DNA from: Sphingosinicella sp.
Lineage (GTDB): Bacteria; Pseudomonadota; Alphaproteobacteria; Sphingomonadales; Sphingomonadaceae
DNA length: 48,814 nucleotides
Strand: one strand, 5' to 3'
NCBI GenBank assembly: GCA_052387495.1
Contig: JBQTJC010000094.1
The notes beneath the pieces were generated by a model. That model did no database searches. It was given only the letters and a program-made list of their open reading frames with translations, and was not told the DNA's origin. A program made the translations under genes and the position numbers. Below, in pieces: positions 20,487 to 24,219 of the stretch; position 1 is the stretch's first letter; each line of letters opens with the position of its first letter.

Positions 20487-21148
20487 TGAGCGACCTTTCC
20501 GACTGGCTCGAGGACAAGCTCGGCCACCGCCCGCGCGGCCTCGCGCCGTTCGAGGCGGCGCTCACCCATGCCAGTTTCGGCGAGGGCAATTACGAGCGGC
20601 TGGAGTTTCTGGGCGACCGCGTCCTCGGCCTCGCTGTCGCGCATTGGCTGATCGAGACCTATCCGAACGAGCCCGAAGGCAATCTCTCGCAGCGCCTCAA
20701 CGCGCTCGTCACCCGTGAGGTCTGCGCCGAGATCGCGCGCGAGCTCGAGCTGACGCCGCGGCTGCGCCTCGGCCGCCAGGCGATCGACGACGGCGTGTTC
20801 GACAGCGACAATGTGCTGGGCGACGTCGTCGAGGCCTTGATCGGTGCGCTCTATCTCGAGGCGGGCTTCGAGGCGGCGAGCAAGTTCGTCCGCGCCGCCT
20901 GGGCGGACCGGGTCGACCGGCTCGCCGCGCCGCCCAAGCATCCCAAGGCGGCGCTGCAGGAATGGACCGCGGCGCAGAGACGGCGGGCACCCCATTACGA
21001 GGTGGTCGAGGCGCGCGGTCCCGACCATGCCCGCCGCTTCACGGTGACCGTCACCATCAAGGGCGTCGGCGAGGCGACGGGCACCGGCCTTTCCAAGCAG
21101 GAAGCCGAAACCGAGGCGGCCCGCGCGATGCTGAAGGACCTGCCATGA
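20486..21148 (+). CDS. rnc: Ribonuclease III
   Basis: NYERLEFLGDRVLG, DVVEALIGALY, C-terminal dsRBD. Confidence 0.96.
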   Translation: MSDLSDWLEDKLGHRPRGLAPFEAALTHASFGEGNYERLEFLGDRVLGLAVAHWLIETYPNEPEGNLSQRLNALVTREVCAEIARELELTPRLRLGRQAIDDGVFDSDNVLGDVVEALIGALYLEAGFEAASKFVRAAWADRVDRLAAPPKHPKAALQEWTAAQRRRAPHYEVVEARGPDHARRFTVTVTIKGVGEATGTGLSKQEAETEAARAMLKDLP

Positions 21149-22038
21149 CGCAGCGTTTCGGCACGGTCGCCGTCGTCGGCGCGCCCAATGCGGGCAAGTC
21201 GACCCTGGTCAACGCGCTGGTCGGGCAGAAGGTCGCGATCGTGACCCCCAAGGCGCAGACCACCCGCACCCGCTTGATGGGGATCGCACTGCTCGGCGAG
21301 ACGCAGCTCCTGCTGACCGACACGCCCGGCATCTTCCAGCCGAAGCGGCGGCTCGACCGGGCGATGGTCGCCGCCGCCTGGGGCAGCGCGCAAGACGCCG
21401 ACCTGATCGCGCTCGTCGTCGACGCTAAGACCGGGCTGACCCGCGGTCTCGACGAGATGCTCGACCGACTGAAGGAGCGGCGCGAGCCGAAAATCCTGGT
21501 CCTCAACAAGGTCGATCTGGTCGCCAAGGAGAGCCTGCTCGCGCTCGCCACGGAGCTCGGGCGGCGGACGGAATTCGAGCAGATTTTCATGATCTCCGCG
21601 ACGAGTGGCGATGGCGTCGCCGATCTCAAGGCCGCGCTCGCTGCACGCATGCCGGAAGGACCGTGGCACTTCCCCGAAGATCAGGTTTCCGACGCCACCG
21701 ACCGGATGATGGCGGCCGAGGTGACCCGCGAGCAGCTCTACCACCAGCTTCACGCCGAATTGCCCTACGAAAGCGCGATCGAGACCGAGAAGTTCGAGGA
21801 GCGGCCCGACGGCTCGGCTGTGATCCACCAGCAGATCCTCGTCGCCCGCGACAGCCAGAAGGCGATCGTGCTCGGCAAGGGTGGCACCCGCATCAAGGCG
21901 ATCGGCGAGGCGGCGCGCAAAGAGCTGTCGGCACTCCTCGGCCGCAAGGTCCACCTCTTCCTCCACGTCAAGGTCAACCCGAAATGGGAGGAGGACCGCG
22001 GGCTCTACCGCGAGATCGGGCTGGAGTGGGTGGAGTGA
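21145..22038 (+). CDS. era: GTPase Era
   Basis: GAPNAGKSTL, KAQTTR, DTPG, NKVD, KH domain; ATGA overlap with rnc. Confidence 0.97.
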   Translation: MTQRFGTVAVVGAPNAGKSTLVNALVGQKVAIVTPKAQTTRTRLMGIALLGETQLLLTDTPGIFQPKRRLDRAMVAAAWGSAQDADLIALVVDAKTGLTRGLDEMLDRLKERREPKILVLNKVDLVAKESLLALATELGRRTEFEQIFMISATSGDGVADLKAALAARMPEGPWHFPEDQVSDATDRMMAAEVTREQLYHQLHAELPYESAIETEKFEERPDGSAVIHQQILVARDSQKAIVLGKGGTRIKAIGEAARKELSALLGRKVHLFLHVKVNPKWEEDRGLYREIGLEWVE

Positions 22039-22066: not shown

Positions 22067-23290
22067 TCACCCTTTGACGTTGACGATCTGCCGCAGCCGG
22101 TGCCGGATCCGCACCAGATCGGTCTGCGCGTTCATCACGGCGCCGATGTCCTTGTAGGCGGCCGGACTCTCGTCCAGCACGCCTTCGTCCACCCGCGCCT
22201 CGATGCCGCGCATTGCCGCCTCGTGCTGCTCGAGCGTGATCCGGCGCTTGGCTTCGCCGCGCGACATCAGCCGGCCCGCGCCGTGCGAGCAGGAGCAGAA
22301 GCTCTCGTCATTGCCGAGCCCCTCGACGATGAAGCTGCCGGTACCCATCGAGCCCGGGATGATCCCGAGCTCGCCCTGGCCGGCGCGCACCGCGCCCTTG
22401 CGGGTCACCCAGACGCGCTCGCCGAAATGGGTCTCCTGCACCGCATAATTGTGGTGGCAGTTGATCGCCAGCTTGTCGGTCTTGAACGCCGGCAGGTGCT
22501 TGCGCAGCGCGTCGAGGACGCGGCCCATCATCAACTCGCGGTTCGCGATCGCATAATCCTGCGCGAAGTGCATCGCTTCGATATAATCGTCGAAGAGCTG
22601 CGAGCCTTCGCTCAGGAACGCGAGATCGCGATCGGCAAGGTGGAAATCCAGCCGCTCCTTCGCGATCGCCTCCCTGGCGGCGTCGATGAAGTAGGTGCCG
22701 ATCCGGTTGCCGGTGCCGCGCGAGCCCGAATGGAGCATCACCCACAGCCGATCCTCCTCATCGAGGCAGATCTCGATGAAGTGATTGCCCCCGCCCATCG
22801 AGCCGAGTTGGTCGCTGGTCTTGCCCTCCACCTTCGGGTGCCTGGCGACGATCTTGCGCCAGCGCGCCTCGAAGCGATCGTACCAGGCGCGCGCCACCGA
22901 ATTCGGGGTCACGACCCAGCCGCCCTTCGCATGGTTCGCGCTTTGGCTCGATTCGAAGCCCTTGGGTACGGCACGTTCGATCTCCGCCCGGACCGCGCCA
23001 AGGCCGTCGGGAAGCCGGTCGGCGGTGAGCGAGGTGCGCACCGCCATCATCCCGCAGCCGATGTCCACGCCCACCGCGGCCGGCACGATCGCCGCCTTGG
23101 TGGCGATGACCGAGCCCACGGTCGCGCCCTTGCCCCAGTGCACGTCCGGCATGCCCGCGACATGGCCGAACACGAACGGCAGCGACGCCACGTTGCGAAG
23201 CTGCTGCATCGCCCCCGCCTCGAAAGGCTGGTGGCTGTCCCACAATTTCAACGGCACGCCGGCCGTCTGATGAATCGAAAACTTGTCCAT
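22067..23290 (-). CDS. rtcB: RtcB family RNA ligase (3'-phosphate/5'-OH)
   Basis: MPDVHWG, VGVDIGCG, GGGNHF, HSGSRG, CHHNY, PGSMG, SCSHGAGR, DESPAAYK. Confidence 0.97.
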   Translation of the reverse strand: MDKFSIHQTAGVPLKLWDSHQPFEAGAMQQLRNVASLPFVFGHVAGMPDVHWGKGATVGSVIATKAAIVPAAVGVDIGCGMMAVRTSLTADRLPDGLGAVRAEIERAVPKGFESSQSANHAKGGWVVTPNSVARAWYDRFEARWRKIVARHPKVEGKTSDQLGSMGGGNHFIEICLDEEDRLWVMLHSGSRGTGNRIGTYFIDAAREAIAKERLDFHLADRDLAFLSEGSQLFDDYIEAMHFAQDYAIANRELMMGRVLDALRKHLPAFKTDKLAINCHHNYAVQETHFGERVWVTRKGAVRAGQGELGIIPGSMGTGSFIVEGLGNDESFCSCSHGAGRLMSRGEAKRRITLEQHEAAMRGIEARVDEGVLDESPAAYKDIGAVMNAQTDLVRIRHRLRQIVNVKG

Positions 23291-23317
23291 GGCCTTGATC
23301 CTGATGACTGGAATTTC

Positions 23318-23394
23318 TGGTCAGGGTGGCCGGACTTGAACCGGCGACCTCCCGCTTCCAAGGCGGGCACTCTATCCACCTGAGCTACACCCTG
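23318..23394 (-). tRNA. tRNA-Pro(UGG), atypical
   Basis: 77 nt cloverleaf: CAGGGTG/CACCCTG acceptor, A73, encoded CCA; D-arm GCTC/GAGT; anticodon stem CCCGC/GCGGG, loop CTTGGAA; T-arm GCCGG-TTCAAGT-CCGGC. Confidence 0.88.
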
Positions 23395-23420
23395 AACGAC
23401 GGGCGCAGCGCGGCGACCCG

Positions 23421-23474
23421 TCAACCTCGTAGGCTGACGCTCCTCGGTCGGAGATAGAGTTCGGTCGCGCACAT
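23421..23474 (-). CDS. Putative leader peptide MCATELYLRPRSVSLRG (17 aa)
   Basis: ATG...TGA between candidate promoter and tRNA; rare codons CGA, AGG, CTA, CGA; no SD (near-leaderless). Too short to prove coding. Confidence 0.45.
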   Translation of the reverse strand: MCATELYLRPRSVSLRG

Positions 23475-23484
23475 AGCGGACGGG

Positions 23485-23513
23485 CCGATACGCGAATGGG
23501 CGATTCGGCGCAA
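23485..23513 (-). promoter_or_regulatory. Candidate sigma70 promoter TTGCGC-N17-TATCGG for leader-tRNA-rtcB
   Basis: 17-nt spacing, immediately after cobB stop; partial consensus only. Confidence 0.4.
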
Positions 23514-23514
23514 G

Positions 23515-24219
23515 TCAGCCGGCCAGAATCTCGTCTACCCAGGCCGGCACCAACTCGCCCGCTTTGCCGATCCGGCTCTCGTGAAAGTGATAGGAGCCGA
23601 GGCTGGGATCGAGGTTCATCTCGATCGTCCGGGCGCCGCAATAGCGGGCGGTCTGGACGAAGCCGGCGGCGGGGTAGACGGCGCCCGAGGTGCCGATCGA
23701 GACGAATAGATCGGCCTCCATCAACGCCCGGTCGATCGCCTCCATCCCGTAGGGCATCTCGCCGAACCAGACGATGTCAGGCCGGAGCCCTCCCGCCGCG
23801 CCGCAGCCTGGACAGGCGGGATGATCGCCGAGATCGGCTTCCCATCGCGCGCGCCCGTCGCAGCCAAGGCACCAGGCCGAGTTCAATTCGCCGTGCATGT
23901 GCAGCACGCGCTTCGCCCCGGCGCGCTCGTGCAGATCGTCCACATTTTGGGTGACAATGAGCAACTCGCCCGGCCACCCGGCATCGAGCCGCGCCAGCGC
24001 CCGGTGTGCCGCATTGGGCTCCACCGTCCTCAGCCGCGCCCGCCGCGCGTCGTAAAAGGCCTGGACCAGAGCCGGATCGCGCGCGAACGCCTCGGGCGTC
24101 GCCGCGTCCTCGACCCGATGCCCCTCCCACAGCCCGTCCGGCCCGCGAAAGGTGGCGAGCCCGCTTTCGGCGGAGATGCCGGCGCCGGTCAGGACGACGA
24201 TGTTGTGGATGCCGCGCAT
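23515..24219 (-). CDS. cobB: NAD-dependent protein deacylase (sirtuin class III)
   Basis: LTGAGISAESG, FYDARR, TQNVDDLHERAG, HMHGE, CxxC..CxxC, RPDIVWFGE, GTSGAVYPAAG. Confidence 0.95.
   Translation of the reverse strand: MRGIHNIVVLTGAGISAESGLATFRGPDGLWEGHRVEDAATPEAFARDPALVQAFYDARRARLRTVEPNAAHRALARLDAGWPGELLIVTQNVDDLHERAGAKRVLHMHGELNSAWCLGCDGRARWEADLGDHPACPGCGAAGGLRPDIVWFGEMPYGMEAIDRALMEADLFVSIGTSGAVYPAAGFVQTARYCGARTIEMNLDPSLGSYHFHESRIGKAGELVPAWVDEILAG

Follow-up and report, generated by a model that had tools for sequence, protein, structure and literature searches.

In the ermC leader, a stalled ribosome rearranges the hairpins and unmasks a Shine-Dalgarno sequence, and in mgtL stalling on proline codons can induce. 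Closer to RNA repair stands PA5471.1-armZ-prfH of Pseudomonas aeruginosa, for which PMC12057347 proposes transcription attenuation via predicted terminators. Leaderless polycysteine ORFs of mycobacteria, as described in PMC9031893, offer a precedent for a sensor ORF that lacks a leader of its own. As to the codons involved, CCN and CUA are reported to stall when m1G37 is missing (PMC8384417), and CGA-CCG is presented in PMC7829197 as an intrinsically stalling pair in yeast ribosomes.

Here, I describe a leader that appears to combine a short ORF with a tRNA gene in front of an RNA ligase gene. It lies in a 48,814-nucleotide stretch (the window) of contig JBQTJC010000094.1 from Sphingosinicella sp., where the minus strand reads, in order, a Sir2/CobB-like gene, a short intergenic stretch, the leader ORF, a tRNA-Pro(UGG) gene and, 27 nt further on, rtcB (Table 1); the element itself measures about 200 nt. 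Its predicted folding suggests, with a chance that I put slightly above even, a feedback switch that responds to proline decoding and would gate both the folding and maturation of the tRNA and the translation of rtcB. The closest named records of the locus belong to Allosphingosinicella sp. and other Sphingomonadales. Beyond its end, rtcB faces 21022-22038 on the plus strand and converges on a lepB-rnc-era cluster, in which era was named by NCBIfam, and lepB and rnc from their translations only.

Table 1. Features of the rtcB leader locus, with positions counted along the window
Feature	Position	Strand	Remarks
rtcB, 407-aa RtcB-family RNA ligase	22067..23290	-	single copy found in the assembly
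Segment 6, rtcB ribosome-binding region	23291..23304	-	
Accessory tRNA-Pro(UGG), A37	23318..23394	-	ARAGORN; Rfam 66.6 bits
Segment 5, T-stem end and acceptor 3' strand	23321..23331	-	predicted anti-Shine-Dalgarno in OFF (helices 6, 7)
Segment 4, tRNA nt 3-11 (acceptor 5' strand, D-stem start)	23384..23392	-	
Segment 3, anti-acceptor	23398..23409	-	pairs with segment 2 (ON) or tRNA 5' strand (OFF)
Segment 2, overlaps stop codon	23413..23427	-	pairs with segment 1 or segment 3
Leader ORF, 17 sense codons and TGA	23421..23474	-	no Shine-Dalgarno sequence; near-leaderless
Segment 1, 3' part of ORF	23431..23438	-	pairs with segment 2 in ribosome-free RNA; helix 4, 87% paired
Anti-D-arm segment	23443..23460	-	accessory OFF pairing with 23384..23369
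Arg9-Pro10 dicodon, CGA CCG	23445..23450	-	inferred stall site
Codons 3-4	23463..23468	-	predicted OFF pairing with tRNA variable loop/T stem 23349..23341; helix 1, 73% paired
Predicted -10 hexamer, TATCGG	23485..23490	-	TA 13-16 nt before ATG in leaders
Predicted -35 hexamer, TTGCGC	23508..23513	-	17 nt from -10; from sequence
Sir2/CobB-like deacylase gene	23515..24219	-	upstream neighbour; absent from some loci

A preliminary description had read the ORF at 23474..23421 (-) as 17 sense codons followed by TGA, and its letters are identical here. Under a loose rule, the ORF recurs in 31 of the 41 rtcB loci with at least 75% identity (28 distinct), as against 29/152 distant rtcB loci, so that the proposed leader is indeed kept in relatives. 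The remaining close loci either lack the element (eight, seven of them distinct) or offer no usable upstream sequence (two). In 27 of the 28 distinct leaders the ORF has 15-19 codons, and 11 in one with a partial deletion; lengths differ by whole codons, TGA is swapped for TAA or TAG, and every carrier retains the ATG, the uninterrupted frame and a stop located 5-20 nt ahead of segment 3. None of the 43 other ARAGORN tRNA calls of the genome has an ORF of 10-21 codons at the leader spacing. Most carriers also share a promoter-like layout (TTG or TTC, 17 nt, TA, and an ATG 13-16 nt after the TA), from which a leader of 0-5 nt would follow. The TA spacing was part of the rule by which leaders were selected; TTG or TTC stands at the matching distance from the ATG in most of the 28. 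In the window, the -10 position would place the transcription start at about 23477-23479, leaving a leader of 3-5 nt, and this predicted start agrees with an earlier expectation of one near 23478. A strict consensus scan returned no promoter.

The ORF had also been described as loaded with rare codons. CGA, AGG, CGA and CTA are rare genome-wide (synonymous use of 4.8% for CGA, 4.1% for AGG and 1.0% for CTA in 1082 crude long ORFs), whereas the overall load is that of chance: 4 of 16 internal codons, with a nucleotide-shuffle mean of 4.4 (P 0.69). Pooling 26 leaders gives 65 rare codons where shuffles predict 108.7, a depletion which suggests that the leaders behave like coding sequence, and in three relatives rare codons are wholly absent. 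Sensing of rare codons at large was therefore rejected. As for transcripts, four soil metatranscriptomes of one study, available as contigs only and sharing 6-8% of words, contain two contigs of a relative (about 93% alike) that span the leader interior, the tRNA and rtcB, and a third that bridges the upstream gene and the leader; they show neither start nor expression. On the whole, it can be held with high confidence that a conserved regulatory leader is real.

Close RtcB orthologues occur in 28 of the 156 genomes of the genus, in a few other Sphingomonadales and in metagenome records, and in none of 400 family genomes at E<=1e-190. In an approximate FastTree RtcB tree (43 sequences, many nodes weak), the loci without the element nest inside the clade with intact tRNAs, which points to secondary losses. 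Seven such orthologues (L002, L003, L005, L006, L027, L032, L038) miss the leader, the tRNA and apparently the Shine-Dalgarno sequence; in several of them palindromic repeats have inserted between the genes, and others or the same ones retain a remnant of the tRNA 3' end.

The ligase aligns over residues 26-407 to PDB RtcB chains (E 2e-37) and keeps, in the alignment to solved ligases, D76, C79, N169, H170, H187, H280, K298 and H336, which I take to be the conserved metal/GTP residues; it scores below the curated cut-offs of the NCBIfam subfamily models matched. Neither RtcR (PF06956) nor Ro60 (TROVE, PF05731) was found in the genome (84% complete), and no TGGCAC-type box was found before the leader, while a second rtcB clade has one. 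Upstream of that second clade (L011, L013-L015, L018, L020, L025) stand tandem structured repeats with tRNA-like T loops, presumably akin to YrlA-type Y RNAs.

The tRNA has a cloverleaf, G35-G36, C1-G72, A73 and CCA; presumably G35-G36, C1-G72 and A73 make up the identity set of tRNA-Pro. A separate canonical tRNA-Pro(UGG) is encoded on contig C181 of the same genome. Position 37 is A rather than the G that makes a TrmD substrate; the same holds for 15 of the 16 distinct viral members of this class, retrieved with a search pattern that left the anticodon free. All 16 of these have proline anticodons, and the idea of a non-decoding tRNA owing to A37 was dropped. A specific m1G37/TrmD sensor was likewise considered and set aside, for three phage copies of the switch (L287, L289, L290) have G37. 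Among intact copies, anticodons change among proline anticodons only, or lose one loop base.

When the 43 tRNA calls with full flanks are compared, the acceptor stem of this tRNA takes 12.4 kcal/mol to form within its surroundings; the median of the other calls is 0.35, and two of them score higher. In one tRNA-Arg(TCT) of the genome (contig C55, 578-654, minus strand) the flanks disfavour the acceptor stem by 13.4 kcal/mol, which might point to another regulated tRNA or simply to chance.

The pairings were followed through an alignment from which three of the 28 elements were excluded, one with a partial deletion (L028), one with an insertion (L126) and one nearly identical to another (L127); among the 25 aligned, the tRNA is intact in 15 and decayed in 10. 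One of the intact rows (L043) comes from an unpublished genome (G083). The mutually exclusive hairpins around the stop codon that had been noted earlier are present (23438..23420 and 23422..23398), and the attenuator-like layout read from them is borne out by conservation and predicted pairings. To these hairpins the present analysis adds what the modelling suggests is the main switch, namely the 3:4 helix, a pairing of the acceptor 3' strand with the Shine-Dalgarno sequence and a recurring Arg-Pro dicodon. The 3:4 helix is a hairpin of 9 bp (23409..23401 with 23392..23384) in which the 12-nt stretch upstream of the tRNA pairs with tRNA nt 3-11. It is 99.6% paired in the 25 sequences and is the sole helix kept by RNAalifold, with one two-sided change only; its pattern stands upstream of 30/39 close rtcB loci and 0/153 distant ones. 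The 5:6 pairing is retained with compensatory changes, even where the tRNA has decayed. Both the OFF set (leader pairings, 1:2, 3:4 and 5:6) and the ON set (2:3 and cloverleaf) beat 500/500 column shuffles in percent paired and covariation score; this control ignores kinship, and since relatives are not independent, every p value is to be read as nominal. For all six pairings, native partners outdo cross-species partners in 12 hand-picked lineages (nominal permutation p <0.0001 to 0.013). As judged from sequence, the decayed tRNAs, about a third of relatives, appear to keep the 3:4, 4:5 and 5:6 pairings, and their elements would serve solely as an rtcB switch.

The anti-D-arm segment, to which the preliminary description gave a central part, is present (23460..23443) and marginal when taken alone in this genome. 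Its duplex value of -20.5 is equalled or beaten by several ordinary tRNA flanks and by 54/300 shuffles; the match is absent in two phage elements, L287 (278/300 shuffles pair as well) and L323 (164/300). Across 12 chosen lineages, native leader/D-arm pairs reach -14.2 and cross pairs -11.2. As the main switch it was rejected on the strength of the flanks and shuffles, and it is retained as an accessory, helper pairing.

The proposed switch would work as follows. With no ribosome on the leader, 1:2 would form, leaving segment 3 to take the tRNA 5' strand (3:4) and to block the cloverleaf; a ribosome that has reached the stop codon would itself cover segment 2, so that 3:4 blocks the cloverleaf again. 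In both cases the acceptor 3' strand would pair with the Shine-Dalgarno sequence of rtcB (5:6), the OFF state. A ribosome held at about codons 4-12 would cover segment 1 and the anti-D segment, 2:3 would form first, the tRNA would then fold (4:5) and segment 6 would be released; RNase P would presumably mature the folded tRNA. The natural signal would be slow decoding of CGA-CCN, most likely with tRNA-Pro cleaved, uncharged or unmodified, and the two outputs, a spare tRNA-Pro and an RNA-mending ligase, would relieve the stall. That the element is a ribosome-driven switch with the tRNA as its ON state is, judging by the models, likely.

With a modelled ribosome footprint of -12..+15, the median dG(ON-OFF) of the 15 intact elements is +12.3 for free RNA and, by the codon in the P site, +6.6 at codon 4, +2.1 at codon 8, +2.7 at codon 9, +3.8 at codon 10, +4.7 at codon 12 and +15.2 at the stop, so that a modelled stall at codons 8-9 moves the balance about 10 kcal/mol toward the cloverleaf; the window follows the same course (+9.6 free, +4.6 and +3.3 at codons 8 and 9, +13.8 at the stop). 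For nascent RNA, before the tRNA emerges, the probability of 2:3 in the window is 0.00 without a ribosome or with one at the last codon, and 0.96-0.99 when the ribosome stands at codons 4-10; at codon 9 it exceeds 0.5 in 15/15 intact and 9/10 decayed elements, and in the window it drops to 0.02 with a footprint 3 nt shorter. In eight of the ten decayed elements 2:3 forms without a ribosome, and their OFF state would hence require ribosomes to run on to the stop. The rtcB ribosome-binding site is predicted to open at lower cost in ON than in OFF in 25/25 elements, with a small gain in the window (1.5 kcal/mol; 7.0 against 8.5).

The equilibrium model never favours ON in the window (acceptor-stem probability <=0.03) and does so in some relatives only, and folding under ribosome footprints does not flip the window element; the proposed reading thus needs co-transcriptional folding or tRNA tertiary energy that is absent from the model. 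Native leaders beat shuffled ones (at most 1/25 shuffles as high) in 9/14 elements only, and in the other five shuffled leaders matched the native in at least 4/25 trials. In the model, part of the stall effect is the masking of any leader pairing.

The likely stall site was sought in what the leaders share. Those that precede a tRNA-Pro or tRNA-Pro-like gene have CGA-CCN in frame in 7/7 lineages (the window clade, L236, L287, L288, L289, L290 and L323), with a shuffle chance of 0.03-0.10 per lineage; L323 surfaced after the prediction had been made. CGACC copies fall in the Arg-Pro frame in 9/12 cases (nominal p 0.004). Any Arg-Pro dicodon, counted before L323 was known, is found in 11/16 lineages where 4.1 are expected, five times with an Arg codon other than CGA, and is absent in five. 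The leaders hold one or two such dicodons and no long run of control codons. Within the window clade, 14/15 aligned intact elements have CGA-CCN, and the exception, CGG-CCG, comes from L043; an element found later (L219) has Lys-Pro instead, CGA and GGUCG having been lost together. Since CGACC is also complementary to GGUCG in segment 2 or in the variable loop, RNA pairing may explain its retention. Arg-Pro persists, however, without anti-tRNA complementarity in L287 and L323, and its position coincides with the smallest modelled ON-OFF gap. Recurrence, persistence and position, together with anticodons restricted to proline, suggest that the signal is read as slow Arg-Pro decoding, arising most likely from the loss of usable tRNA-Pro.

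A sequence model built from the alignment finds the full element, within the genus, at rtcB only. In the same genus, this tRNA-Pro class also heads sigma54-type rsr/rtcB operons without a leader. In rsr/rtcB operons L223-L228, L230-L235, L016 and L017 a conserved GC-rich hairpin precedes the tRNA-Pro, with no leader ORF. In the family, L237 has a leader, a decayed tRNA and an RtcB of 66% identity, L236 a leader, a switch and an intact tRNA-Pro with no rtcB within its 3-kb locus, and L267 was added by pattern search. The switch pattern matched 5 of 400 other genomes of the order (two true elements and three false; a reversed control also gave five) and 1 of 350 other genomes of the class, a tRNA-Asp without leader.

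In IMG/VR, a pattern of anti-acceptor and tRNA start returned four matches, all of which carry an ORF of 10-17 codons that ends 10-14 nt before segment 3 and precedes a gene for tRNA-Pro or a tRNA-Pro-like RNA; their 4-kb loci gave no match to rtcB. A variant pattern, run afterwards, gave six matches, two of them identical and forming a fifth lineage (L323/L324), and four not tRNA loci; one further viral pattern had no matches, and in another pattern search 14/15 matches were not tRNA loci. Most copies of the tRNA-Pro class carry no switch: 28 other viral tRNA-Pro loci showed no strong anti-acceptor hairpin, and six phage or plasmid loci with names, picked among the best BLAST matches, lacked the element. 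Among the matches listed no phage or plasmid record covers 80% of the query. L287, L288, L289, L290, L323/L324 and L236 share the promoter-like layout, the Arg-Pro ORF, the 2:3 and 3:4 hairpins and the tRNA-Pro, with no adjacent rtcB; there, going by their sequence, the same switch apparently gates the tRNA alone. The tRNA of L288 lacks the acceptor 3' strand. A widespread phage tRNA-Pro class that starts with CAGGG (L291-L318) has A37 in 15 of its 16 distinct sequences, which would not be TrmD substrates, and adjoins rtcB at 2/28 loci. It may tentatively be proposed, at somewhat less than an even chance, that these elements form a natural class of attenuator, spread over sphingomonads and unrelated phages, in which an Arg-Pro stall decides whether the cognate tRNA-Pro folds and is matured by RNase P, one clade having its acceptor stem wired to the rtcB ribosome-binding site and several branches having let the tRNA decay to a pure riboregulator.

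Other readings of the same facts have to be weighed. The switch might be a general sensor of stalled or damaged ribosomes, answering to antibiotics or rRNA cleavage, with Arg-Pro merely intrinsically slow and tRNA-Pro supply not the signal. Any stall at codons 4-12 yields 2:3 in the model, five lineages do without Arg-Pro, and in ten of the aligned relatives the tRNA is not intact. The Arg-Pro-Arg of the window fits what I take to be the macrolide +X+ arrest motif, yet many leaders have no +X+ at this position. Such a sensor would find a parallel in the leader peptide that, according to PMC12057347, induces the RtcB-like ArmZ under ribosome-targeting drugs, and the stalling of yeast ribosomes at CGA-CCG given in PMC7829197 would suit it as well. 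Arg-Pro nonetheless tracks tRNA-Pro in every lineage that has it, phage loci without adjacent rtcB included, which makes the general sensor rather unlikely. The fold might otherwise act chiefly on transcript length or stability, through Rho termination or decay of misfolded untranslated RNA, with Shine-Dalgarno masking secondary. Untranslated C-rich leaders are typical Rho substrates, the gain in ribosome-binding site opening is small in the window, and the tRNA-only versions have no downstream site to control; against this speak the compensatory changes in 5:6, decayed tRNAs included, and the lack of an intrinsic terminator in the leader, the single match found lying inside rtcB at chance level. 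I regard this as improbable.

Two further explanations dispense with translation of the ORF. In one, the element works as RNA only, being a decayed inverted tRNA copy switched by, for instance, tRNA halves in trans or a protein, and the ORF is incidental to it: the ORF does align with the reverse complement of tRNA nt 1-60 (in L004, 4/500 shuffles score as high), and RtcR of Salmonella is described in PMC7790460 as responding to damaged tRNAs. The preserved ATG, frame and stop placement, the whole-codon length changes and the exchange of stop codons, as well as phage leaders L287 and L323 that lack complementarity to the tRNA, render it very improbable. In the other, the ORF is a chance neighbour of an ordinary tRNA gene. 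Short ORFs abound, and in the window neither the rare-codon count nor the anti-D duplex goes beyond chance; still, ORF, promoter spacing and hairpins are conserved in 28 distinct loci and in phages, none of the other tRNA calls of the genome has such an ORF, and this explanation is largely refuted and scarcely credible. The switch that responds to proline decoding remains the preferred reading.

How does the proposed switch relate to those already described? With PA5471.1-armZ it shares, as far as PMC12057347 describes that system, a short leader ORF before an RtcB-family gene and an RNA that is restructured by impaired translation so as to turn the gene ON; here, in contrast, no intrinsic terminator was found, and ON would consist of a tRNA cloverleaf and the predicted release of the Shine-Dalgarno sequence. 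As in the ermC and ermB translational attenuators, a stalled ribosome is predicted to shift a chain of hairpins and to free a downstream Shine-Dalgarno sequence that is masked in OFF, but the chain has six segments, two of which form the tRNA acceptor stem, the ORF is near-leaderless and no resistance gene follows. Like trpL, leuL and ilvL, in the terms in which PMC8384417 presents them, the locus has a short ORF with codons matching the controlled function, and by conservation and prediction that ORF overlaps the first pairing segment; the OFF-state terminator hairpin with U-tract of the trpL type was not found in this leader. Codon-sensing leaders act on protein genes, through termination or translation, whereas the predicted product here includes the cognate tRNA, via its folding.

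Gating of maturation through alternative pairing of the pre-tRNA 5' region has its likeness in a synthetic theophylline RNase P riboswitch, which PMC7897497 depicts as engineered, ligand-driven and masking a single-stranded leader, while the present element is natural, would be driven by the ribosome and is predicted to disrupt the acceptor stem. It recalls the RtcR/sigma54 rsr-yrl-rtcBA system in that rtcB is linked to tRNA-like RNAs and tRNA damage, to the extent that PMC7790460 covers it, and differs in having a layout of the sigma70 type with a leader ORF instead of RtcR and Ro60, neither of which was found. It departs from YrlA-type Y RNAs as well (no Ro60 found, and Rfam gives tRNA only) and from T-boxes, the window having no Rfam match beyond two tRNAs. 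In the literature searched, which took in few subscription journals, no description of the element was found, and the engineered device was the one case of tRNA maturation controlled by alternative pairing.

To sum up, known leader-peptide switches stop transcription or hide a ribosome-binding site, while the predicted output here is whether a tRNA folds. The element would be a natural counterpart of the engineered RNase P riboswitch and would add direct feedback on tRNA supply; it would let RNA repair be controlled without a protein in the role of RtcR, and suggests how some phages could release a spare tRNA-Pro only upon depletion by host defences. Its relatives form a series that leads from an intact tRNA to a tRNA-derived riboregulator.
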